A DNA stretch of 63,651 nucleotides from a virus (lineage: Duplodnaviria > Caudoviricetes), in IMG/VR virus record IMGVR_UViG_3300037467_001235, positions 1-63,651 of that record; one strand, written 5' to 3'. Position numbers and translations under genes: made by a program. A model generated the notes under the pieces. It had not been told where the DNA came from, searched no databases, and saw only the letters and a list, made by a program, of their open reading frames with translations. Below are positions 5,593-53,737 of the stretch, piece by piece. How positions within the stretch are numbered: the first letter of the stretch is position 1; each line of letters opens with the position of its first letter.

Positions 5593-5895
5593 TCAGAGCC
5601 CCTTCACGACTGTGGGGGTGAGGAATTCGACGCGGAACGACTCCACGTACTGGCCGCGTTGCTCCAGGAAATACCTGGTGTGGGGTTGCTGCTCATGCTC
5701 ATCGAACGCCGCCCGGTCCCGGTACACCTCGTAGAAGATGCGCGCCAACGGTTCATCGGTGACGGCGTGGGTGGCGTAGACGAGGGTGCCGGGTTCATGG
5801 TCAGTGATCTGGCGGACCGTGTCGGCCACGAGCGCATCGAACGCGGCGGCTTTCTCCTCGGATTCCAGGTTGAACCGTACGACCAGCGCGAACAT
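5593..5895 (-). CDS. antibiotic-biosynthesis-monooxygenase (ABM) family protein
   Basis: 100 aa; EPGTLVYATH...FYEVYRDRAAFDEHEQQPH motif. Confidence 0.85.
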   Translation of the reverse strand: MFALVVRFNLESEEKAAAFDALVADTVRQITDHEPGTLVYATHAVTDEPLARIFYEVYRDRAAFDEHEQQPHTRYFLEQRGQYVESFRVEFLTPTVVKGL

Positions 5896-17671: not shown

Positions 17672-18030
17672 AGTTCGTTCCGCTCACGGAGTTCACGATC
17701 GGACGGCAGGAACATGTCCATCACCTCGGTGCGGGACATGCCAGCGTGGCGGGCGACCATGAGGAGGGTGCTGGTCAGTTTGATGACCGTCGCTGTGTCA
17801 TCGATGCCGGAGAGATGCGAGTTGACGGCGCGCGACACCTTCTTCGGGGTGAGGGTGTGGTCATCGACGGATTCGATGATTTGGCGGATACGTGGTTCGG
17901 CTTTGAGGATGTGGGGGCCGAGGCGGCGGGGGTTCCACCAGTAATCTCGGGCGATACCCCACAAACACCAGAGGAGGATCATGTCGGTGACGCCGTCCAT
18001 GTAGTCGCTGGTCAGGTAGTCCCAGATCAT
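17668..18030 (-). CDS. membrane-anchored protein (paralog of 17318..17671)
   Basis: Same shared motif as 17318..17671. Confidence 0.7.
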   Translation of the reverse strand: MIWDYLTSDYMDGVTDMILLWCLWGIARDYWWNPRRLGPHILKAEPRIRQIIESVDDHTLTPKKVSRAVNSHLSGIDDTATVIKLTSTLLMVARHAGMSRTEVMDMFLPSDRELRERNEL

Positions 18031-18518
18031 CGGTTGCTCCGTTCCTGCTGCCAGCGGGTGAACGCTTGGTCCCGCTCCGCCTGGTCGGATGACTCCATAC
18101 CGAGGGTGTGGAGGGACATGGACTGCTCACGAGCCAGATAGCCGGCCTCGAACGCTTCGTCTTGCCGTGCCTGCGCGGCCATCCGGGCGCGCTGCCCTGT
18201 CCATGGCAGGTGGAGACCATCGTCGGAGTGGCGGGGTACGAAGTGGACGTGCAGGTGCGCGATCGTCTGGGTGGCGGCCATGCCGCTGGAGGTGATCAGG
18301 TTGTACGACTCGCCCGGTTCGGCGTACCGGGCGGCGGCCTCCATGCTGGCGCCCAGAGGGAAGGGCGACGGGTGCTCGGCATGTTCGGCGGGCAGGAACA
18401 GCATGTGCCCGGGAGTGACTGGGTTGAGCGGCCGGAATCGGACCACATCCCGGCGGTACGTGAGTTCGTATTCGCCGTGGCTGATGCGGTCACAGAACGG
18501 GCACTGAGGGGAGCTCAC
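18027..18518 (-). CDS. HIT-family nucleotide hydrolase (copy 1, with C-terminal extension)
   Basis: CPFC...PLNPVTPGH...HLHVHFVPR. Confidence 0.9.
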   Translation of the reverse strand: MSSPQCPFCDRISHGEYELTYRRDVVRFRPLNPVTPGHMLFLPAEHAEHPSPFPLGASMEAAARYAEPGESYNLITSSGMAATQTIAHLHVHFVPRHSDDGLHLPWTGQRARMAAQARQDEAFEAGYLAREQSMSLHTLGMESSDQAERDQAFTRWQQERSNR

Positions 18519-29556: not shown

Positions 29557-29901
29557 TCATGCGGCGGGTTCGGGCTCACGCATCCCGCCCGAGTCGTCCA
29601 GCAGAACCCAACGCCCCCACAGATTCACGGGGACCGCGTCCGGGTCCTGCTGTTGAGCCACCAGATACCCGTGCTCGCGGGCCCATTCCCGGTTACGTTC
29701 GATCCGCTCATGACACCCGTCGTCCACATCGAGAAGGTTCGCCGCACGGTTGGTGGACACGCGGCGGCTACCTCCCATTCCTCGCGGCCGCCGATGGTGG
29801 ATCTGGTTCGCGCGTCGGGCGCCGCAGATTTCGCACACCCCGCCGGAGCGGGCGCGGACGATCGCCACGGCCACACGGGACGGGTTCGTGTTGCGGGCCA
29901 T
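29557..29901 (-). CDS. HNH endonuclease
   Basis: RSGGVCEICG..HHRRPRGMGG..NLL...CHERIE. Confidence 0.85.
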   Translation of the reverse strand: MARNTNPSRVAVAIVRARSGGVCEICGARRANQIHHRRPRGMGGSRRVSTNRAANLLDVDDGCHERIERNREWAREHGYLVAQQQDPDAVPVNLWGRWVLLDDSGGMREPEPAA

Positions 29902-30353
29902 CAGAACTCACCGCCCTTCACATACCGGTCATGCAGCACCAGCGACCCGGCCACTGAGACGTTCAGCGAACCCGCCGCAGGACTCGGGATCTGCACCACG
30001 TAATGGCAGCGCTTCAACACCCCATCAGGCAGACCGTGATCCTCGGCGCCCAACAGATAGAGGGCCCGGCGCGGATGCTCGAAGGTCGTGAGCGCTTCGG
30101 CGCGGTCATCCAACTCGATTCCCACCAACGGACAGCCGTGGGGCAGATGGGCTACCAAATCCTCGATGTCGGAGAAATGCTGCAACGGGATCTTGTTCGG
30201 AGCCTTGCAAGTATCGGACGCCTGCGGCGAATAGCGGCGTCCCACTGTCGCCAGCATCGCCGCCCCATAGGTGTGCGCCGACCGCCACAGCGTCCCGACG
30301 TTCACCTCATGCTTCGGATGCCACACCGCGACCCCGAAATACCCGGCGGTCAT
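29901..30353 (-). CDS. SpoU/TrmH-family RNA 2'-O-methyltransferase
   Basis: SPOUT motifs NVGTLWRSA, LLGAEDHGL, VQIP...SLNVSVAG. Confidence 0.9.
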   Translation of the reverse strand: MTAGYFGVAVWHPKHEVNVGTLWRSAHTYGAAMLATVGRRYSPQASDTCKAPNKIPLQHFSDIEDLVAHLPHGCPLVGIELDDRAEALTTFEHPRRALYLLGAEDHGLPDGVLKRCHYVVQIPSPAAGSLNVSVAGSLVLHDRYVKGGEF

Positions 30354-34807: not shown

Positions 34808-35368
34808 ATGAAACTCGCAGGGGCAGCTGCCATCACGATCATCGCCACCGCCGCGCTCGCAGGATGCTCATCCAACGACAACACCAGCGCGCACGCCGAC
34901 ACCGGCACCGGTACTCCAGCCAAGGCGCCGGCCACCGCCGCGCCCATCCCGGTCACCATCGGTCAGCCGTTCCTGATCAGCAGTTCCAAGGGCACAACCG
35001 GATTGGTCACCGTCGACAAGATCGAGCTCAACCCGACCTGCACCACCAAGTTCGGTCCGGTCACCCCGCCGAAAGGCACCAACGTAGCCGTCGAACTGGA
35101 CGTGCAAACCAACGCCATCCCGCCCAGCACCTACATCACCGAAAACTGGTTCCAGGAACTCACCCCCGACGGCTACACGAAACGCCTGCCGATGGCCGAC
35201 AACCTGTGCATCGCCGACCGCGAAGACATGGGCACCCCCTACCAGCCGAACTCGAAGTACCACGGCTGGGTGCTGCTCGACGTCTCCAATACCGCATCCT
35301 CCCTGCTGATGTCGGACATCTACGACGGCCGCCCTGTCCCCGAAGTGCACCGCATCCCGATCAGCTGA
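34808..35368 (+). CDS. lipoprotein (superinfection-exclusion candidate)
   Basis: Lipobox LAGC; lies between repressor and integrase. Confidence 0.8.
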   Translation: MKLAGAAAITIIATAALAGCSSNDNTSAHADTGTGTPAKAPATAAPIPVTIGQPFLISSSKGTTGLVTVDKIELNPTCTTKFGPVTPPKGTNVAVELDVQTNAIPPSTYITENWFQELTPDGYTKRLPMADNLCIADREDMGTPYQPNSKYHGWVLLDVSNTASSLLMSDIYDGRPVPEVHRIPIS

Positions 35369-36716
35369 GCCAGTCGACGCCGATGTCCTCCGGCCGAAAC
35401 TCCGCACCCTTCCGTGTCGGCCGGATCGTCACCTTCAACAGCGCGGCCACCATCTCCCGCTGCCGATCCAACCCCGCCGCATCGAATGCCGCCTGCACGT
35501 CGTCGGCGCCGATCACGCCCTCGAAGATCCTGGCTTTCTGCGAATCCGCCATCCGCGCCTCAATCTCCGCCAACTCCGTGGTTAGACGCTTCGCCGTCTT
35601 CAATGCAAACGAAGCCATCATCTGATCGTCCTGCGTGAACTCCGCTTCGAGGGCTTCCAGCTTCCCGCGCAACACAGCCGCTTTCGCACTCAACTCCCCA
35701 ACCCCCTCCCGATCCCGGTCCACCAGCAGTTCTTTCGCGTCCGGCCGCGACAGGCGACCCACCACCAGGCCCGTAACGAACTTGTCCACCATCACCTGAT
35801 TCCGGCCGATCCCATGACATTCACGGCAGATGTACATGGTCGACTTCCACGCCGTCTGCCCAGACCCCAACGTCGTCCCATCATCGCACTTGCCGCACAA
35901 CGCCAACCCCGACAACAGGTACTTCCGGCCACCAGAGCCCGGCCGCCGCCGCTCCGGATCGGCCCGGATCGCGCACACAGCCCTCCACGTCTCCTCATCC
36001 ACCAACGCCGGCCAATCGCCCTTTCGCACGATCTCCCCGTTGTAGGCGAGCAGCCCAGCCAATTTCGGGTTCACCATGTACTGGGACACGGTCGGCCCCC
36101 GCCACTGATTCCCCACCGTGGTCGTCAGTCCCGCGAGGTTCCACGCCTGCGCGATCGAACCGAACGACGAGCCAGCCAGGAACCGTTCGAACCCCTCCCG
36201 CACCGCGGGCGCCTCTACCGGGTGGGGTTGCATGTCCTCGGTGTAGCCGAACAGTCGGCGGTTTCCCCACGGCTTCCCCGCCTCCGCGCGCTGTCGGTGA
36301 GATGCTTTCTGCCGCGCCGACTTCTGATCCATCTCCGCCCGCGCCACCGCGCCTTTGATACGTGCGTACAACCGACCATTGTGAGTAGCGAGGTCGATCT
36401 CACCGGTGACGGTGACGAGCATCAGCCCCTTCCGGTCCGCGAGATCGATGAACGTCTCCAACTCGGCCGGATGCCGGTGCAGCCGGTCCAGGTCCCACGC
36501 CACTACCGCGCCGATCTTCCCTTCCTGGATATCGGTGATCAGCTGTTGATACGCGGGCCGTGTGCCCTTCATCGCGGACCGGTCGTTGTCGATGTATTCG
36601 GTGGCGTCCCAACCGTGCTCGTCGCACTTCTCCCGGCACGGGCCGCGCTGGCGAGAGATGGCGAGCATGTTGCCTTCACGGTCGAGAGACTGGCGGAGGT
36701 AGATGGCTGCGTGCAT
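35361..36716 (-). CDS. int: large serine integrase (phiRv1-like)
   Basis: IYLRQS catalytic motif, WDLDRLHR, recombinase domain, YLLSGLALCGKC zinc ribbon, coiled coil. Confidence 0.95.
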   Translation of the reverse strand: MHAAIYLRQSLDREGNMLAISRQRGPCREKCDEHGWDATEYIDNDRSAMKGTRPAYQQLITDIQEGKIGAVVAWDLDRLHRHPAELETFIDLADRKGLMLVTVTGEIDLATHNGRLYARIKGAVARAEMDQKSARQKASHRQRAEAGKPWGNRRLFGYTEDMQPHPVEAPAVREGFERFLAGSSFGSIAQAWNLAGLTTTVGNQWRGPTVSQYMVNPKLAGLLAYNGEIVRKGDWPALVDEETWRAVCAIRADPERRRPGSGGRKYLLSGLALCGKCDDGTTLGSGQTAWKSTMYICRECHGIGRNQVMVDKFVTGLVVGRLSRPDAKELLVDRDREGVGELSAKAAVLRGKLEALEAEFTQDDQMMASFALKTAKRLTTELAEIEARMADSQKARIFEGVIGADDVQAAFDAAGLDRQREMVAALLKVTIRPTRKGAEFRPEDIGVDWLS

Positions 36717-36732
36717 CCCCCGAGGCTACCCG

Positions 36733-36786
36733 ATATACGTTCTCCAGTAATGAGTTACGGCATGTAGATGACCGAAGCACGTATAT
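36733..36786. other. candidate attP
   Basis: 54-bp imperfect inverted repeat ATATACGTTCTCCAGTAAT...ATGACCGAAGCACGTATAT (15/19 arm match), centre GG 36759-36760, directly upstream of int. Confidence 0.8.
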
Positions 36787-36808
36787 GGGTTGCGCTGGAG
36801 ACATGCGA

Positions 36809-38840: not shown

Positions 38841-39448
38841 CGGCCCGTTTCCAATGTCGCGATCTCGGTGAACAGTTTCCCGAAATCGTCCATCGTGAAC
38901 GAATCTTCGGGGTCCATCATCCGCGACAGCAGCGTCCCGAACGACAGTTCCGAAATATGGTTCTTCACGAACCGGGTTACCAGTTCGTTTTGCAACTTCG
39001 AGGGCGTGACACTCGCTCCCGCCATCGCCACGGCCGACAACGCCTCCGGGCGCGGCTTACGCACCTGGATCTTGTAGCCGTCGATATCGATGGTCTGGTA
39101 GGGCCACTTCGGGATCGGCTTGCCGTCGCTGCCGATGATCGGCTTCCCGGTGTCGACGTCGATCTCGTATGCGCTGTCCTCGACGTTGACCACGGCCGGA
39201 GTCGACGGATTCGCGTACGCGGGTTCCTGCGCGATCGGTTCACCGGTGGGCTGAATGATCTGCGGCTGATCCTCGCGTTCCCGCCGCTGCCGGACCAGAG
39301 CCTGATCCCGTTCGAGTGCTGCACGCTCGGCGGCGAGCGCTTCACGCTCGGCCCGTGCTGCGGCGCGCTCGTCCTCGATGCTGGCCGACTGCCCGTTCAG
39401 GTCCGGGAATCCACTCGGGGGTTCGATGTTCGTCATGGTGTCCTCCAT
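38816..39448 (-). CDS. tail assembly chaperone
   Basis: Acidic ORF ending ETGRPTGPSRS with an overlapping -1 ORF; start may be 39436. Confidence 0.75.
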   Translation of the reverse strand: MEDTMTNIEPPSGFPDLNGQSASIEDERAAARAEREALAAERAALERDQALVRQRREREDQPQIIQPTGEPIAQEPAYANPSTPAVVNVEDSAYEIDVDTGKPIIGSDGKPIPKWPYQTIDIDGYKIQVRKPRPEALSAVAMAGASVTPSKLQNELVTRFVKNHISELSFGTLLSRMMDPEDSFTMDDFGKLFTEIATLETGRPTGPSRS

Positions 39449-39479
39449 CCGTTACTGCTGCCCTGGGGTACAGGCGCGC

Positions 39480-39500
39480 ACGGTAGGGGGCAGGGGTGCA
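39480..39500 (-). promoter_or_regulatory. late-promoter motif TGCACCCC-N7-TACCGT (TAC)
   Basis: Fixed spacing. Confidence 0.8.
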
Positions 39501-39602
39501 GAACTCCCGCCATCAAGATTCGGGCGCCAGACTTGAAACTGGGGGCTCTACTTTCAAGACTGCTTGTGAGTACACTCTGCGGTGGGCGGGTTGATCGCCG
39601 CC

Positions 39603-39798
39603 TGCTCGGGTTGAGGATTACCGGCGGAAGCGCGCATCCAAAACAGCGAGGGCACACCAGCCCGTAGGGAATAGCTACCCAACATCGGGCCATGGAGGCG
39701 CGGAGTCTCCGAGGGGCTTGGCTGGCAGCGCAGTTTAGAGGGCCGCACTCGTGGCGCCTCGCATATCGGGTTCAACTCCCGACATCCTCGACCGAGCA
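39603..39798 (+). ncRNA. putative structured ncRNA with tRNA-like T-arm and acceptor-like stem
   Basis: T-arm TCGGG-TTCAACT-CCCGA (39766-39782); ends pair (39603-39618 with 39784-39798); upstream TACACT; downstream hairpin. Confidence 0.65.
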
Positions 39799-39824
39799 CG
39801 AACCATCCGCAAATATCGGATAGT

Positions 39825-40439
39825 TCACGGGATCACGGGCACGGAGAACAGATCCAACCTCACCGGCCCCACCTTGCCGAGCCGGGACGGTATCGGGTCA
39901 CCCCACGCGGTGGTGTACCAGTCGATACCCCACGCTGAGGTGTACCACGACACCTCCACTTTCGCCTTCATCTGCTGCCCCGGGGTGAGTGTGGCGATAT
40001 CGCCGATGGGGACCGAGTTGGTGGGTTGCCGGTCCTCCAGCAGGAAGTAGATGGCCGCGGTGCCGCCGCCCGATCCCGTGGACCCGGTGCCGAGGTCCCC
40101 GTATCCGCGCATCAGAGACTCGTCGGTGAGGGTGGGGTCTGCGGGGGAGGTGCCTGAGGAGACGCCCCATCGGGTGCGGATGGTGAGGTCTTTCAGGCCG
40201 TCGATCGAATACCGTTGCGGGCCCTGCGTCATCAGCGCGTACACCTGCTGCGATATGCCGGTGTCGTTCGTCCACGCCACATTCACCGTGAACAGGACAG
40301 TTCCGGGGGAGACGTTGGATGCTGGGGTGAAGGTCGCGCCGCCGCCCTGCGCGGTCGCGCGCTGCGCCCACTGCCACCGCCGCAACGGGTCGAGCGCCCC
40401 ATCTGTCGTGTCGAAGAAAGAACTATCAGCACAGGTCAT
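39825..40439 (-). CDS. minor tail protein
   Basis: Paralogous with the two upstream genes (VAWTNDTG...RLDLF). Confidence 0.75.
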   Translation of the reverse strand: MTCADSSFFDTTDGALDPLRRWQWAQRATAQGGGATFTPASNVSPGTVLFTVNVAWTNDTGISQQVYALMTQGPQRYSIDGLKDLTIRTRWGVSSGTSPADPTLTDESLMRGYGDLGTGSTGSGGGTAAIYFLLEDRQPTNSVPIGDIATLTPGQQMKAKVEVSWYTSAWGIDWYTTAWGDPIPSRLGKVGPVRLDLFSVPVIP

Positions 40440-44728: not shown

Positions 44729-47700
44729 CTATAGCAGCGACAGCAGATGGTCTTGGAGCGCGACCGGCCCACCCGACCCGACGTAATGGATGGGGGCGTT
44801 CACGGTGGTGTTGCCGCGGCGCCGGCCACCGTTCTCCAGTGCGGCCACGAGCCGGTCGAACGACTCCGTCTGCCGCGGAGAGAGAACGCGTTCGGGGCTG
44901 ATGGTGTCTTTCGGCATGTAGCCCTTGCCGTAGGCGATACCGCCCTCATCGAAGCTGTCGATCGCCGCGCCTGCGCCGACCGCGATACCCGACACCACCA
45001 CCGCCGCCAGGCCGGCCAACGCCGCACCCACGACAGCGCCGATAGCTGCGCCTATCGCTGTGCCGATGCCGGGGATGATGGACCCGATCGCCGCGCCGAT
45101 CGCGGTGACGACGAGCTGGATCATCGCGGACAGGATCGCGGTGAGGATCGGGATGAGCACCGCCGTAATCAGGTACCGCAGTACGGCTTTCATGAGCGCG
45201 GTGTTCAGGCGGTTCATTTCCTGGATGACCAGGTCGCGGGACGATTCGTTGCGTTGCATCAGGTCCGCGGTGTCGGCGACGATGCGGCCTGTCGCGTCGA
45301 ACGCCGACTGCTGATCGCCGCGGAACCGGCGGATCTCGTCGTTCGCCTTGACCAAGTTGTCGCGGATCTCGATGTTCACGCCGGTGAGACGGACGATCAT
45401 GTCCACCAGCGGGCCGCCGGAGATGTCTTTGCCGAGGGTGCCGCGCGAGTTCTGGACCTTGCTGTCCTGCTGCGCGAGGGCCGCGTTCGCCACCTGCTGC
45501 GCGACCTGCTGGAACGCGCTGGTGGCGGCCTGCGCCACCGACTGCACAGCCTTCGATATCTCCGCCACCGCGTCGAACGCCGAGCCTGGCGCGCCAAACG
45601 GGGACACCGCGCCCGGACCGGGGTTGTTGCCGCCCGGTGTCGTCGCCACCGTGCCGTTCAAGTTGTTCACCGCGGCCGTCGTCGCGTTCGCCGCATCCAC
45701 CACCGTGCCGAACCCGGACCCCAGCCAGTCCTTCACCACGCCCAGCGCGGAATCGAACGCGGACTGCATGATCGGGGTCAGCACCCCGCCCGTGAGCCTG
45801 TTCGAAATCTCTGTCAGGACGGCCCGGAGTTGTTCGGTCTGCTGCTGGGTCACCAATTCCTGGCTGGACTCCGAACGCAGCACCAGATCCCGCGTCTGGG
45901 CCGCAACCTGTCCCGTCTGGGAGATTGCTTCCGCGGTCTGCTCCTGGAACTTCTGATCCTCCGGCGTCTGCCGCGGCGCGAGCTGCACGCCCAGCAGGTT
46001 CGACAACACATCTATCCCGGAGGTGAACACCGCATTCGTCAGCAAGTCGGGATCGGAGCGGCCGGGGGAGCCGCCCGCGATCTGCTGCAAACTCATCACC
46101 ATCGCGTCGAACAAACGGGTCTGCTCGGGGCTGAGGACGCGTTCGGGCGCGATCACGTTCTTCGGCATGAACCCGGTACCCGACGCGAGACCGCCGGAGT
46201 CGAAAGGCGTCACGAAGTCCAGCACCTTGCGGCCGGCATCCACGACGGAGCTGCCCACCGACTTCGCCTTGGTCCACGCGGACGACAGGCCATCGGTCAG
46301 CCCATCCGCCAGGCCGGTCAGGTACTTCACCGACCCGTTCTCGAATGCGCCCAAGTATTCGCCCGGGATCTTCCGGAATTGCGGCGGCGGCGCCCCGATC
46401 TCGGTATCGATGCGCCGGCGGATCGGTTCCGTCAGACCGTGCACGATATCGGCGATCTTCCGCGCCAGGAACCCATGCTGATCTGACACCGAAGGACCGA
46501 CTGACCCGCCGCCCGCGCCGGGCTGGAAATAGCCGTTGGCGCCGATTGGCAGGTGGTAGATGGACGCGAAGCTGGTCGGGTCGGTGCCCGCCCCGTAATG
46601 CACGTCGCCGAGCGCGCCACCGGATTCCGCGCGCATCGCTGTAGCGATACCGAGCAGCGGGATAGCGCCGAGAACACCCGCGGTGTGGCCGCCGCCGGGC
46701 CCGCCGGGGTCGTCGGTGACGCCGATGGTGAACCCGGCATCCGGACCCGATGTGAACCCCATGGGCCCGGTCTGCGGGTAACCCGCGAACGAACTGGTCG
46801 ACCAATACCGCTGCCACGGATTGAGACCGAGGATCGCGGCAGCCACAGAGCCCATGAACCCGGAGCAGTCGAAGCTGTCTCCGACGAATCGCGGCCCCGC
46901 CCACTGGTACGGCTTCCCCGACTGCTCACGCGCGAAGTTGTGACCGGCGAGCAACTGATACATCCACGGTTCGACTGCGCCGCCCTGCGCGAACCGCGGC
47001 TGCAGCTGGTCGAACAACCCTTCGGGGCTGACGTTGCCGATGCCCTTCGCCGCCACCGCGGCCCCGTACCGGTCCAGGTTGTCCCGGCCCAGGTCGGTGA
47101 CAATCTTGCCGTTATCCCACGTGAAAGGGATACCGCGGGCGATCATGTCGCGGATCGCGTACAGCACGTTCTGGCCGCCGGCGGCGATCACTTCCCTCGC
47201 GGTGACGACGTGCTCACCGTTGGACAGGTAGGCGAGGATGTCGTCGGAGGTGCCGGACCCCGGCCCGTTGACGCCACCACCGCGCGCGAATGCGAGCTCG
47301 ACAGGCTTGAGCTCTCCCAGGCCCGGAAGGAACCCAGCGACCGCGTTCCAGGCTTTGAGTAGCCCGCCGTTCCAGACGGTGCCGATGACGAACCTCACCG
47401 GATCGGCGGCGGCACTCTTCAGTCCATCCCAAATGGTTCGGATGCCCTTGACACCGTCATCGAACCAGCCTTTGACCTTGTCAATAGCGTCGCCGATCTT
47501 CGGGAACAGTGTGTCGGTCAGCCAGTCGACGCCCTTGCCGATGAAATCGTTCATCGTCTGCCAGTCGTCGGTGATCAACCGCAGAGCGGGCAGCAGCAGC
47601 TTCTGCACAACCTCGGTGACGAACCAGGTGAAGGCGTTGATGATGTCGGTGATGACTGGCAGCAGAATTTTCAGGATGTCGATCACGCCAGGCATGACCT

Positions 47701-50134
47701 GCACGGCGAGATCCACCAGCTGCGGTAGCAGCGGGATCACTGCGAGCAGCAGGTTCGCGAACGCGCTCACCAACTGAGGCAGATACGGGGCGAGCTCCTG
47801 AAGCGCGTTCGCGAACGCCTGCCCGAGTGTCATCGCGACCTGCGCCAGCACCGGCGCGAGCTGCTGGATCACCGGCTGCATCTGCTGCGCGAACGACTGA
47901 ATCACCGGCGCCAACGCCTGGAACACCGTCGACAGTGCGGGCGCGAGGGCCTGAATCGCGACCGACAGGTTCTCCGCGATCAGGGGGACGATCGGCGCGA
48001 CCGCGGTCAACAGGTCAGCGAACGCCTGCGCCAGCGGCCCCATGGCGGGGGCGAGCGCGTTCACAGCGCCGACCAAGGCGTTGCCGATCACCTGAACGAT
48101 CTGCGACAGCGGCCCGATCATCGGGGTCAGCGCGGTCATCAACGCGGACAGCAGGTTCGAGATCACCGGCAGAATCGGGGCCAGCCCCTCCGCCAGATCG
48201 CCGATGAACGTGCCCAACTGCGGCAGGATGGGGGTCAGGGCGTCCGCGAATGCCGCTCCCAGGTCCCCAAGTCCCGGCGCGAGGTTCACCAGTCCCTGGC
48301 CGAGCGCTTCGAGCATCGGCCCCAGCGACGGCAATACCCTGTCCGCGATCGTGAGCAGCGCGGTGGTGAAATTGCCGAGCAACGGCCCTATCCCGGACAG
48401 GGTTTGCGCGAACCCGTCCAGCACCGAATCCAGCAACCCCGACTTCGCGGCATCCGAGAATGCCGCCCCGATGCTGTCGCCGATCAACGCGACCTGCTGC
48501 CCGATCCCGACCAGCGCCGGGGTCACGACATGGACGAAATCCAACAGTCCCTGCGTCGCTTCACCGGTGCCCATTCGGAAACCGGCCATCAGGTTCGTCG
48601 CGCCCTGGAAGACATCGGTCAGCCCTTGCAGGCCGCGCGCGGACCCGAGGAAGTCCAGGGCCGATTTCGCGGCGCCGTTGAACTGGGTGGCGACACCAAC
48701 CATCCCGGTCTGCAACACCGGCAGCACCCGACCGGACACATCCGTCAATGTGGCGCCGAGGCCGGCGAATCCCGCGTCCTGTACGGCGTTCTTCACGCCC
48801 TCCATCGCCGGTTTCAATCCGACCAGGGCGCGCACGAACTCTTGCGCGTTCGGCGACAGCTTCGACATCGCCTCCGCGTAAGCCTGCTGAGTGGTCGTGC
48901 CTTTCGCCTGCTCGGCCGCCAAATCCCGCACAGCCTTCGCCGCATCCCTGGACGCGATCGACGCCTCATACTGGGCGTCCGCCAGGCGCTGCTCGGCCTG
49001 CTGCTGTTTGTCCTTCGCCGCGGTGACCGCGTCCGACCCTTCGATGCCCTTCTTCTGCGCTTCGGCGTTGTCCTGCTGCGCGCGAGTGTTCTCGTCAACG
49101 GCCTGGTCGTAACGCAACTGCGCACGCTCCAGAGCCACCAAATCCTTCTCATGCTGCGCCGGATTGAACACCGACTGCTGGGCCTGTTTGGTGGCCTCCC
49201 GCAGATCGATTGCCGCTTCCTTCTGCGAGATCGTCGCGCCGCGAGCCCGCAACATCGCGTCTTCGAGATCGCGCCCAGCCTGCCGGTAGGCGCGGCCCAC
49301 ATCGTCGGCAGCTTGGGTGGCTTCGCGCTGGGCGGAGGTCAGCGAACGTTGTGCGATCTGTGCGGTATGGGCGGAATCCGACACCCGGTCCTGCGCATCC
49401 GCCAATGCCCTCGACTTATCCGCCGCTTCGAGGGCTTCCTTCGGGCCGTGCTCGCTTGCGTCGTTCGCGGCCTTGATCGCGTCTTTGAAGCCGTTCAACC
49501 CGACTACCGCGGTCGCCATGATCCCGCCAGCGGCGGGCCCGATCGCCGCCAGCGCCACGGCTAAACCGCCTACCGCACCTGCCGCGGCACCAGCGGCCGG
49601 CACTATTCCGGCGAGAACGCCCGTAACAATTCCCAGGCTTCGAGCAGACGGCGCGATCGATCCAATCGCTGATCCCAGCCGTTGGAACGCGGCTGTGCTG
49701 GCGTCAGCGTCACCACGTAGCCGCGACGTACCGCCACCGGAAGGTGTCGCCGCCCGCAGCCCGGCCGCGGCAGCCGACTGCGCGCGAGACAGCGTGGCCT
49801 GGTCGACCTCCACCCGGATCTGCTGAGTGATCGGCCGTGCTTCACGCTCCAGATCAGCGTGGACGGCCCGCATGTGCTCGGTGACACCCGTGGCATCGAG
49901 GTCGACGGCAATTTCTACGCCGAGATTCGCGGCGTCCAAACGGGTTTGGAGTTCCCGCAAATGGTCGTTGACGGTGGAGTCATCGAAGTTGATGTTGATG
50001 GGGACGGTGAGCGGCCGGGCGTCCATCTGCAACTGGACTTTCCGCATCGCGGAGATGACCACGCGCGACAGGTCCGCTTCGAACCCGCGCGCGTCCGCGG
50101 TGATGGGGATGCGGATTCCGCCGGGAGCAGTCAC
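44729..50134 (-). CDS. tape measure protein with NlpC/P60-like domain
   Basis: 1801 aa, Ala/Leu repeats; GKPYQWAG...FDCSGF...GHTAG. Confidence 0.95.
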   Translation of the reverse strand: MTAPGGIRIPITADARGFEADLSRVVISAMRKVQLQMDARPLTVPININFDDSTVNDHLRELQTRLDAANLGVEIAVDLDATGVTEHMRAVHADLEREARPITQQIRVEVDQATLSRAQSAAAAGLRAATPSGGGTSRLRGDADASTAAFQRLGSAIGSIAPSARSLGIVTGVLAGIVPAAGAAAGAVGGLAVALAAIGPAAGGIMATAVVGLNGFKDAIKAANDASEHGPKEALEAADKSRALADAQDRVSDSAHTAQIAQRSLTSAQREATQAADDVGRAYRQAGRDLEDAMLRARGATISQKEAAIDLREATKQAQQSVFNPAQHEKDLVALERAQLRYDQAVDENTRAQQDNAEAQKKGIEGSDAVTAAKDKQQQAEQRLADAQYEASIASRDAAKAVRDLAAEQAKGTTTQQAYAEAMSKLSPNAQEFVRALVGLKPAMEGVKNAVQDAGFAGLGATLTDVSGRVLPVLQTGMVGVATQFNGAAKSALDFLGSARGLQGLTDVFQGATNLMAGFRMGTGEATQGLLDFVHVVTPALVGIGQQVALIGDSIGAAFSDAAKSGLLDSVLDGFAQTLSGIGPLLGNFTTALLTIADRVLPSLGPMLEALGQGLVNLAPGLGDLGAAFADALTPILPQLGTFIGDLAEGLAPILPVISNLLSALMTALTPMIGPLSQIVQVIGNALVGAVNALAPAMGPLAQAFADLLTAVAPIVPLIAENLSVAIQALAPALSTVFQALAPVIQSFAQQMQPVIQQLAPVLAQVAMTLGQAFANALQELAPYLPQLVSAFANLLLAVIPLLPQLVDLAVQVMPGVIDILKILLPVITDIINAFTWFVTEVVQKLLLPALRLITDDWQTMNDFIGKGVDWLTDTLFPKIGDAIDKVKGWFDDGVKGIRTIWDGLKSAAADPVRFVIGTVWNGGLLKAWNAVAGFLPGLGELKPVELAFARGGGVNGPGSGTSDDILAYLSNGEHVVTAREVIAAGGQNVLYAIRDMIARGIPFTWDNGKIVTDLGRDNLDRYGAAVAAKGIGNVSPEGLFDQLQPRFAQGGAVEPWMYQLLAGHNFAREQSGKPYQWAGPRFVGDSFDCSGFMGSVAAAILGLNPWQRYWSTSSFAGYPQTGPMGFTSGPDAGFTIGVTDDPGGPGGGHTAGVLGAIPLLGIATAMRAESGGALGDVHYGAGTDPTSFASIYHLPIGANGYFQPGAGGGSVGPSVSDQHGFLARKIADIVHGLTEPIRRRIDTEIGAPPPQFRKIPGEYLGAFENGSVKYLTGLADGLTDGLSSAWTKAKSVGSSVVDAGRKVLDFVTPFDSGGLASGTGFMPKNVIAPERVLSPEQTRLFDAMVMSLQQIAGGSPGRSDPDLLTNAVFTSGIDVLSNLLGVQLAPRQTPEDQKFQEQTAEAISQTGQVAAQTRDLVLRSESSQELVTQQQTEQLRAVLTEISNRLTGGVLTPIMQSAFDSALGVVKDWLGSGFGTVVDAANATTAAVNNLNGTVATTPGGNNPGPGAVSPFGAPGSAFDAVAEISKAVQSVAQAATSAFQQVAQQVANAALAQQDSKVQNSRGTLGKDISGGPLVDMIVRLTGVNIEIRDNLVKANDEIRRFRGDQQSAFDATGRIVADTADLMQRNESSRDLVIQEMNRLNTALMKAVLRYLITAVLIPILTAILSAMIQLVVTAIGAAIGSIIPGIGTAIGAAIGAVVGAALAGLAAVVVSGIAVGAGAAIDSFDEGGIAYGKGYMPKDTISPERVLSPRQTESFDRLVAALENGGRRRGNTTVNAPIHYVGSGGPVALQDHLLSLL

Positions 50135-52498: not shown

Positions 52499-53737
52499 CT
52501 ACGGCAGCATGGTTGCCAGCTCGGTCGCCATGCGTCGATGCCCCAGCCAGGATGGGTGGATGGTGTCGCAGGTGCCGTCAGCCCATATCGCGGTGGCGCT
52601 ACCGCCGCGCATCGCACCCGCGAAGTCGATAATGGCCGAGCAGAACGATGGCTTCAGTGCCAGCCACTCGTTGTAAGAGGCGCGCACACTGTCACCGGTG
52701 GATGTGCGGGGAATGATGGTGCCCATATAGACGGGCCCACTGAAGCTCGCCAGCGTTTGCACACGGCTGATCAACGTGAGTACAGCGGCCTGCATCGTCG
52801 CCAAGGTTCCACCGCCGCCGAACGCATCGTTGGACCCGCCGCTGATCAGCAGTTCATCGACCGGATATGTGCCGAGGTTCATTCGGTTCCAGACATGCGC
52901 GATGATCACGTTCGACGTGTCTGTCGCGTAGTCGCTGAGCTTCCATCCTGCCAGCGACAGGTTGACGATCAGCCGATTGTGTTCGGCCGCCCACAAATAC
53001 ACATTGCCCCGCCACAGTGGGGTAGGCGAAATGCTGGCGCTGGTTGTGCCGCGCGTGCCGCCGATCGGCTCGAAGATGCTGTCCCCGATGACGAAACACA
53101 CCTGCCGGCGAGTCGTGCACTCGTATTCGATGATCCAATCGAACGGCACAAAGGTCACGGTCCCGCCCGAGCCGGCGACAGTCGGGTCAGTGGCCGACGT
53201 CGAGTTGGTCCAGGTCCACGCCTTCCCGGCGCCGGTCTGTACCGCGGTCGATGATGCGAATGTCCACCCGAACGCCACCAGAAATTCCGTGTTTGCGGTG
53301 AACAGGGCAGGAGCTGACGTCACCCATGGCGACGTGTAATACGTTCCGTCGCCGGGGATCGTCTGGTCCGTGGACACGATCGTCGTCGCAGCGGAACCGG
53401 TGAAACTTCCGGTATCGGAGGCATCGCCGGTGGTAGCCACACTGTGTGTGCCGACCACCAGTTTTTTCAATGTCGCCGCAGTCTTTGCGGTTTCGCCTGA
53501 GTCGCGGTTGCGGATCTTGATGCGCCATCGCGACACGTCCACGGGCAGCTTCACTATGAACCGTGTGCTGCCTGCTGTGCCTGCTGACAGGCTCGTCGCC
53601 ACTGTTCCACCCAACCCGCCGTTGGTGTGCGGGAGGATCATGGTGCGCAGGGGAAGCGGCTTCAGCGTCAGTGTGTCGCTGTCCGGTAGTTCTTTGACGG
53701 CGCCCGCGTCGAGGACGAGGGGACGACGCTCCACCAT
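52499..53737 (-). CDS. SGNH/GDSL hydrolase-domain protein (probable virion appendage)
   Basis: Blocks GDS(I), G, GSND, DTIHP. Confidence 0.85.
   Translation of the reverse strand: MVERRPLVLDAGAVKELPDSDTLTLKPLPLRTMILPHTNGGLGGTVATSLSAGTAGSTRFIVKLPVDVSRWRIKIRNRDSGETAKTAATLKKLVVGTHSVATTGDASDTGSFTGSAATTIVSTDQTIPGDGTYYTSPWVTSAPALFTANTEFLVAFGWTFASSTAVQTGAGKAWTWTNSTSATDPTVAGSGGTVTFVPFDWIIEYECTTRRQVCFVIGDSIFEPIGGTRGTTSASISPTPLWRGNVYLWAAEHNRLIVNLSLAGWKLSDYATDTSNVIIAHVWNRMNLGTYPVDELLISGGSNDAFGGGGTLATMQAAVLTLISRVQTLASFSGPVYMGTIIPRTSTGDSVRASYNEWLALKPSFCSAIIDFAGAMRGGSATAIWADGTCDTIHPSWLGHRRMATELATMLP

Follow-up and report, generated by a model that had tools for sequence, protein, structure and literature searches.

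In transfer-messenger RNA (tmRNA), the G3-U70 pair of the acceptor stem provides alanine identity, and the 3' ends of tmRNAs are classic integration targets. The moron cargo of actinophages has so far consisted mostly of protein genes. YrlA RNAs are, according to PMC4201824, tRNA mimics with a T-arm, some of which are phage-encoded. Here, we analyze an element that shares traits with each of these systems. It is located in a soil actinophage represented by IMG/VR virus record IMGVR_UViG_3300037467_001235, the whole of which (63,651 bp; completeness rating of 100%) was analyzed and is referred to as the window. Positions 39502-39800 form an accessory cassette that is derived from a tRNA or tmRNA and belongs to no known family. 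We attribute a probability of roughly 40% to the reading that this is a moron-like cassette with a self-transcribed tRNA-like small RNA. What the data establish are its features in the sequence, its character as a cassette, the structure of its alleles, its local conservation and its T-arm of tmRNA type. Newly found are the dispensable cassette, its alleles (at least three) with an exchangeable centre, the tmRNA-type 3' end of 28 nt and the low divergence of the conserved blocks. Literature searches, whose coverage did not extend to subscription journals, returned no description of such an element.

One full relative was retrieved (IMGVR_UViG_3300037419_001325, hereafter L002), and contigs of close relatives in four public sequencing runs (X2, X3, X8 and X9) display four states of the site. 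The X8 contig has an empty site, in which 39501 is joined to 39801 with nine other letters in between. The X3 contig is window-like, with four differences across 39609-39783, and the X2 contig is equal to L002. The X9 contig corresponds to a third form: 25 letters replace 39503-39591, yet retain TACACTCT.CGGTGGGCGG, 84 other letters occur in place of 39645-39723, and 217 letters follow after 39784, an insert equal in length to that of X2 (217 letters). The conserved blocks of X9, one of which is 39592-39644, show two differences each, versus 25 in a flank of 224 nt. In the distant relatives TPA2, Phelemich and NTR1, for which synteny was checked, the third of three tandem DUF7172/phrog_282 paralogues and the tail-assembly-chaperone-like gene are separated by 24, 24 and 20 nt, respectively. 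As far as these sequences tell, the cassette is discrete and dispensable, and it comes in at least three allelic forms in which conserved flanking blocks surround an exchangeable centre of ~80 nt, with a second tRNA-like unit in some. The records of the four runs are contigs, which show presence and carry no RNA ends, strand or level. Only their letters were taken as evidence, to the exclusion of RNA-library depths and of uncovered parts of the stretch. The X8 and X9 libraries are recorded as root-metagenome RNA-Seq, and they hold contigs of close relatives in different cassette states.

The T-arm is the single site in the window, both strands considered, that fits N5-TTCRANY-N5' with a Watson-Crick stem, while shuffled sequences have a mean of 0.115 sites (at least one site in 11% of 200 shuffles). 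Directly 3' of the T-arm lies CATCCTC-G, of which ATCCTC (39784-39789) pairs with GAGGAT (39613-39618) in an acceptor-like core of 6 bp. T39619 and C39783, at the 7-66 position, are unpaired (a T-C mismatch), after which the stem continues to ~15 bp with one G-U pair and one bulged G. This extended closing stem is present in the minimum-free-energy fold and reaches -24.3 kcal/mol in RNAduplex. By our arithmetic, the T-arm and the closing stem have a joint chance expectation of ~0.006 per window. In L002, the 3' strand of the closing stem has changed but remains paired, with one G-U pair converted to A-U and the bulge filled; the acceptor-like stem at the T-arm comprises 5 bp and two mismatches. 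The stretches GCGAGG (39646-51), CCTCGC (39757-62, 3 nt 5' of the T-arm) and GAGGCGC (39695-701) are all present. The plus-strand open reading frames (ORFs) in the element are limited to 32, 43 and 99 amino acids, and no ORF is conserved in the cassette because the many indels of L002 break the frames.

A first-pass annotation, made from the sequence of the window, had proposed a tRNA-mimic RNA of ~200 nt with tmRNA-like topology on the strand opposite all neighbours. All its coordinates proved correct upon reading the sequence. The canonical T-arm (now known to be unique in the window), the acceptor-like pairing that grows from a 6-bp core to ~15 bp, the pairings of GCGAGG with CCTCGC and of GAGGCGC with the same strand, and the CTTGAAA/TTTCAAG palindrome, present as CAGACTTGAAA / TTTCAAGACTG, are as it described. 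Its statement that the intergenic region has no credible ORF holds, as no frame is conserved, and ARAGORN and Rfam agree with it that the element, without CCA and without G3-U70, is not a canonical tRNA or tmRNA. It overlooked the presence/absence cassette, the exchangeable interior and the alternative of a t(m)RNA relic, which explains much of the same evidence.

The likeness to tmRNA was quantified in several ways. The T-arm plus CAYC, a 21-mer (TCGGGTTCRACTCCCGACAYC), has 32 matches in 185,579 species genomes. Twenty-five of these are ARAGORN tmRNA loci, 24 of them at the 3' end of the gene; three others are tRNA 3' ends (Leu, Ala and Ile), and four have no overlapping gene. The comparison set comprised 37 tmRNAs, i.e., 29 actinobacterial ones (none from genomes flagged as unpublished) and eight from the pattern scan. 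Local alignment of 39766-39793 with this set yields a score of 44, against a null maximum of 25, and none of 200 shuffles reaches 44. A hidden Markov model (HMM) of tmRNA 3' ends finds its best match in the window at 39767-39786 (E = 0.012), and an HMM of the 5' ends of the 37 tmRNAs has no hit in 39502-39800. Four other cassette blocks compare with tmRNAs at p-values from 0.11 to 0.98, those of the 5' blocks being at least 0.69. Homology to tmRNA over the whole element had been considered and was dropped, since by-eye matches of the 5' blocks are no better than those of shuffles. Judged by these alignments, the tmRNA-type part is 28 nt long (T-arm and 3' strand), and the remainder matches nothing known. 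With tmRNA, the cassette thus shares the sequence of the T-arm and of the bases that open the 3' acceptor strand, a T-arm that adjoins a terminal stem of the 5' and 3' ends, and a large non-tRNA insert for the anticodon region. It differs from tmRNA in that it has no G3-U70 (the pair there is G39615-C39787 in the window and A-U in the register of L002), no encoded CCA, no 5' GG.UUCGAC, no GGAC before the T-arm, no pseudoknots and no conserved tag frame; its RNA would measure ~200 nt rather than 340-400 nt, with a stem of 15 bp rather than 7.

Searches for known families gave no confident assignment. ARAGORN reports no tRNA or tmRNA gene with default settings or with the intron option, and nothing reaches the gathering scores of Rfam. 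With E-values up to 10, the window gives Tymo_tRNA-like as its only Rfam match (12.5 bits, E = 5); in the whole record neither RF00005 (tRNA) nor RF00023 (tmRNA) has a match at that level, nor does RF00005 in the L002 record. Similarly, the second tRNA-like unit of L002 is called by ARAGORN only at the 80% threshold and by Rfam only as mascRNA (14 bits, E = 8.4). The sole sub-threshold Rfam matches are tRNA-like families, a trait shared with viral tRNA-like structures and mascRNA, but they fall far under the respective gathering scores (40 and 42.5 bits) and indicate generic tRNA-likeness only. Homologues beyond L002 were searched for as well. Four exact or degenerate DNA patterns and two protein-seeded scans returned only the contig of L002 from IMG/VR; no homologue was found in the JGI metagenomes by T-arm pattern or protein-seeded scan, nor in the species genomes by protein-seeded scan. 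In a blastn search against 50,697 phage records there is no match at 1e-5, the only hits being chance ones of 22-24 nt (E of at least 2).

Sequence divergence is distributed unevenly between L002 and the window. The flanking paralogue genes are 92.8% identical and the chaperone-like gene 52-80% per 50-nt bin, whereas identity amounts to 96-100% in 39450-39650 and 64-71% in the centre (39650-39750). No differences occur in the 85 positions of 39566-39650, and three occur in the 61 positions of the T-arm block (39724-39784), compared to 67 out of 341 fourfold-degenerate sites (19.6%) in three adjacent genes. At this neutral rate, the chance of 0/85 is ~1e-8 and that of 3/61 ~1e-3 (our arithmetic). 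The low block divergence relative to the fourfold sites argues for constraint; recent recombination of the cassette would look alike. Within the variable domain, a hairpin with a TAGCTA loop palindrome is conserved, and its A39671G substitution is found in X2 as well as in X3. L002 carries ~190 extra bases 3' of the T-arm, which include the second tRNA-like unit. L002 has both T-arms, each with its closure, on one strand, which makes the tRNA-related origin on the plus strand secure. The coordinates of all features are listed in Table 1.

Table 1. Features of the cassette and its surroundings (window coordinates unless L002 is indicated).
Feature	Position	Strand	Basis or remark
Accessory cassette, whole	39502-39800		299 bp; absent from one close and three distant relatives
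T-arm TCGGG-TTCAACT-CCCGA, tmRNA type	39766-39782	+	Sequence; tmRNA 3'-end comparisons
Closing stem (acceptor-like), 5' strand	39603-39618	+	Minimum-free-energy fold; identical in L002
Closing stem, 3' strand	39784-39798	+	Differs in L002; pairing with the same 5' strand kept
Palindrome CAGACTTGAAA-N13-TTTCAAGACTG	39528-39562 (arms 39528-38 / 39552-62)	strandless	Missing from X9
-10-like hexamer TACACT	39571-39576	+	Conserved, together with ~12 nt that follow it, in each of the three filled variants
Possible leader hairpin GGCGG / CCGCC	39585-39602	+	Putative, read from the sequence
Conserved post-stem block, D-region position	39619-39644	+	GG within GGCGGAAGC
Exchangeable internal domain	39645-39723	+	64-71% identity in L002; 84 other letters in X9
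Hairpin GGG-A(A/G)TAGCTA-CCC, loop palindrome TAGCTA	39667-39680	+	Conserved within the variable domain
Conserved block 5' of T-arm	39724-39765	+	Hairpin 39738-39760, or anticodon-like arm 39730-39746 plus long variable region
Hairpin overlapping the stop codon of the upstream gene	39800-39826		Backbone, outside the cassette
Second tRNA-like unit	L002 2575-2656	-	7-bp acceptor closure; T-arm CCGGG-TTCGATT-CCCGG; 6-nt anticodon loop
Gap between genes	39449-39824		376 bp
Three tandem DUF7172/phrog_282 paralogues	41632-39825	-	Last one 39825-40439
Phage_TAC_16 protein (tail-assembly-chaperone-like)	39448-38816	-	
Lysin	38307-37288		
Serine integrase	36716-35361		2.7 kb from the cassette
SpoU-type methylase	29901-30353		150 amino acids
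Tape measure protein	44729-50134		Minor tail proteins also nearby

Concerning the RNA that the cassette is proposed to produce, we infer its transcription, ends, fold and any protein partner as follows. Located between the last DUF7172 tail-region gene and the chaperone-like gene, the element would be antisense to all neighbours. A plus-strand transcript would run from ~39583, just downstream of TACACT, to ~39800, resulting in an RNA of ~220 nt. Its long acceptor-like stem would stack on the tmRNA-type T-arm, with the exchangeable domain of ~80 nt inside, and a tRNA 'stem plus elbow' would be presented to host tRNA-handling proteins. Given the absence of G3-U70 and CCA, no tmRNA-style charging would be expected, and given the absence of a canonical anticodon arm, no decoding. 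As the RNA would neither be chargeable nor decode, it may act as a mimic, decoy or scaffold, the specificity of which would be set by the internal domain. The palindrome, whose half-sites have no other copy in the window, may be an operator. With phage morons, the cassette shares its presence/absence among close relatives, its opposite orientation, its own -10-like hexamer and an insertion point between the hairpin after one gene and the untranslated region (UTR) of the next. Unlike morons, which are usually protein genes, it has no conserved ORF. A bolder version of this proposal, which we consider quite doubtful, is a new class of phage-borne modular tRNA mimics, in which a constant T-arm/stem scaffold would hold an internal domain of ~80 nt that is swapped among related phages (at least three alleles), sometimes with a second unit in tandem. 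Promoter-driven and expressed in the direction opposite to the late operon, for instance from a prophage, such an RNA would titrate or redirect a host factor that binds tRNA or tmRNA, such as SmpB, RNase P, a modification enzyme or a tRNA-cleaving defence nuclease.

If the cassette is expressed, it would represent a phage-encoded tRNA/tmRNA mimic outside every curated family, in a lineage without tRNA genes, and the accessory moron cargo of actinophages would gain an RNA example; its swappable internal domain would suggest a specificity module in phage-host or phage-phage conflict. If it is a relic, it would document that tmRNA-type recombination cores have moved inside a phage whose present integrase is of the serine type, a matter of lesser interest. 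In both cases, annotating it as a tRNA or tmRNA is inadvisable.

A number of observations weigh against a small RNA that is expressed and folded. The fold z-scores of the window are -1.37 for the plus strand and +0.70 for the minus strand; for L002, the element strand has a z-score of +0.20 and the gene strand folds better (-0.76). When the columns of the two-sequence alignment are shuffled as a control, the z-scores are +0.24 (plus strand) and -0.44 (minus strand), with a structure conservation index of 0.573 versus 0.619 for the null. These comparative tests are based on two full sequences, the window and L002, and hence have low power; for the same reason, a covariation statistic is impossible. 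Of 3000 placements chosen at random in this G+C-rich genome, 5.6% yield a stem that equals or betters the closing stem taken alone. A sigma-70 consensus scan of 39300-40000 yields neither a promoter nor a terminator. The empty site of X8 demonstrates that the element can be dispensed with, the identity of the blocks could reflect recent recombination of a mobile cassette rather than selection, and the contigs from RNA libraries span whole genes, so that a DNA origin is possible. On the other side, the fold plans of the window and L002 are similar, both comprising the closing stem, a helix of two GCGC stretches around the variable domain, the GGG-ARTAGCTA-CCC hairpin, a pre-T-arm hairpin and the T-arm. 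In the window, the central hairpins contain several G-U pairs, which form on the plus strand only. RNAalifold, run on the two sequences, finds six pairs changed on both sides, all in the diverged centre, where the alignment is unreliable. Altogether, the support for a folded RNA is weak.

Against this background, several claims of the first-pass annotation stand in part. The conserved blocks are indeed those that would build the tRNA-like core of the supposed mimic, but significant thermodynamic or comparative support for a fold of ~200 nt was not obtained. The tmRNA-like character applies to the T-arm and the start of the 3' strand, where tmRNA 3' ends are matched, and to nothing beyond 28 nt. 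The proposed -10 hexamer TACACT exists, although it is not part of a consensus sigma-70 promoter. The downstream hairpin at 39800-39826 exists as well, but it belongs to the phage backbone and not to the element, as it is still present in the empty-site relative and overlaps the stop codon of a gene. The assignment of the tRNA-related region to the plus strand, opposite its neighbours, is supported by the T-arms of both the window and L002, and the SpoU methylase that had been put forward as a possible partner is a real gene. Among the checks that had been suggested, Rfam and ARAGORN point to no confident known family, and the homologue search yielded one full relative that has the conserved blocks, while conservation of the fold between the two sequences is not significant.

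The most serious alternative, which we rate as somewhat unlikely, is an inert relic, i.e., decayed tRNA- or tmRNA-derived DNA (att-type cores at a t(m)RNA 3' end, or pseudo-tRNAs) that has been shuffled by phage recombination and has no function. Such a history would be in line with the confinement of the tmRNA likeness to 28 nt, the presence/absence and cassette-type variation, the fold without statistical support and the tRNA-like folds that ARAGORN reports only at a noise-level threshold; in the second unit of L002, too, the cloverleaf is defective, its anticodon loop having 6 nt. Moreover, the left insertion edge coincides with the first base of a 13-nt copy of T-loop, T-stem and acceptor start (AACTCCCGCCATC, 39502-14), and 39784/5, where L002 ceases to be homologous to the window, marks the end of the second repeat copy (39774-86). 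However, 13-nt repeats with at most one mismatch occur in 45 out of 127 windows of 501 nt, and since such repeats are common in this genome, the direct repeat may be due to chance. Pairing of the 5' strand over 15 bp is not needed in a relic, and 0/85 and 3/61 differences versus 67/341 would be surprising in junk DNA, barring a recent exchange of the cassette. In addition, the only integrase of the phage is a serine recombinase, beside which a better attachment site (attP) candidate is found. Compared with pseudo-tRNAs and t(m)RNA att cores, the cassette has in common a short stretch of tmRNA/tRNA-3'-end type, a partial direct repeat and variant breakpoints at repeats; it differs by the 15-bp pairing of its 5' strand, its conserved non-tRNA flanking blocks and the lack of a tyrosine integrase, none of which was found among the window ORFs scanned for domains. 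As regards the attP of a phage that integrates at a tRNA or tmRNA, a core-like 28 nt is present, but the integrase at 35361-36716 is of the serine type. A miniature inverted-repeat transposable element (MITE) or a mycobacteriophage mobile element (MPME) is not supported either, as the inverted repeat 39603-18 / 39784-98 lies off the left insertion boundary at 39502.

A candidate attP is situated at 36730-36789, where the sequence is richer in A+T, shortly before the start codon of the serine integrase. It is an inverted repeat (CCGATATACGT ... ACGTATATGGG, 10/11 complementary, 38 nt apart) that was found by eye and is unlisted by the repeat tool. The palindrome of the cassette had also been considered as attP of the serine integrase and was dropped, as this inverted repeat right beside the integrase gene is likelier.

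It is improbable, in our view, that the region is a cis-element of the minus-strand late operon or of the phage DNA (a terminator, promoter/operator or 5' UTR) and that the T-arm is incidental. The location between two co-oriented genes and the operator-like palindrome would fit such a role, as would the invariance of the adjacent 39417-39501 across all four variants. The gene strand of L002 folds slightly better and scores a terminator-like hairpin followed by TGTTTTGG (L002 2786-2803), at a site that corresponds approximately to 39640-39665 on the minus strand of the window, in the variable centre of the cassette; no terminator is scored in the window itself. Yet, the cassette is missing in X8, X9 is devoid of 39503-39591 including the palindrome, and the distant relatives have only 20-24 nt at this location. 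Because X8, X9 and the three distant relatives lack all or part of the cassette, gene expression does not require it. The T-loop consensus, furthermore, reads on the plus strand only, twice in L002.

Next to the cassette, 39417-39501 spans 53 nt upstream of the chaperone-like gene together with its initial ~30 nt, and displays no differences between the window and its relatives (L002 was compared over 39449-39501, and the contigs of runs X8 and X9 were compared as well). As it is invariant while the body of the chaperone-like gene has no more than 52-80% identity, this stretch probably serves, under constraint, as a 5' UTR or site of translation initiation on the minus strand.

A working non-canonical tRNA or tmRNA, either a class II Ser-like tRNA with a 5' acceptor strand split by an insert or intron or a minimal tmRNA, is very unlikely. 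At the 80% threshold, ARAGORN does call a tRNA-Ser(aga) at 39710-39793 in the window and its counterpart in L002, where G39742A converts a U-G pair of the anticodon stem to U-A, and in-silico removal of 39619-39710 (92 nt) leads to a tRNA-Ser(aga) at the default threshold. Nevertheless, only this one out of 2820 deletions tried gives a call, and at 80% ARAGORN likewise reports a tRNA within coding sequence. An anticodon arm with a 7-nt loop appears only in the noise-level ARAGORN model or after the removal of the 92 nt, and we know of no bacterial intron type of ~90 nt. For a tmRNA, the 60-80% thresholds yield only 'permuted tmRNA' calls, the tag peptides of which are wholly different between the window and L002, and the empty Rfam models and the absence of G3-U70, CCA and a tmRNA 5' part count against either form. 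Hardly probable either is a Y-RNA-like (YrlA-type) RNA that partners a host Ro60/Rsr protein: the YrlA RNAs, as described in PMC4201824, set a precedent of non-coding T-arm tRNA mimics that are unable to decode and in some cases phage-borne, but the topology and module order of the cassette differ from theirs, no Y RNA family of Rfam matches, the Ro-binding motif GNCGAAN0-1G given there is absent from 39566-39800, and, as the first-pass annotation had stated, there is no Ro60 gene in the neighbourhood, with no TROVE/Ro60 domain in the 71 ORF entries scanned (some entered twice).

Two further leads were dropped. RNA-based prophage replication origins are known from phages kept as plasmids. An origin of this kind, as described in PMC7157519, was set aside because the phage has an integrase. 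Antisense targets within the phage were discarded as the longest matches are 13 nt, which was judged to be chance level without a control. A minor-tail protein search detected no prophage relative in three actinobacterial genomes that share the T-arm 21-mer.

The remainder of the window is that of a tailed actinophage. Its G+C content is 62-68%, nearly all genes with coding-type GC3 are on the minus strand, and its proteins link it, at a distance, to cluster-B-type mycobacteriophages, Tsukamurella phage TPA2 and Nocardia phage NTR1. The DUF7172/phrog_282 triplet, with a mutual identity of ~20%, is also present in TPA2, Phelemich and NTR1. Elsewhere, the phage encodes a HIT-domain protein (18027-18518), an ABM monooxygenase-like protein (5593-5895) and, amid the structural genes, a protein of 412 amino acids with a GDSL lipase domain (52499-53737).

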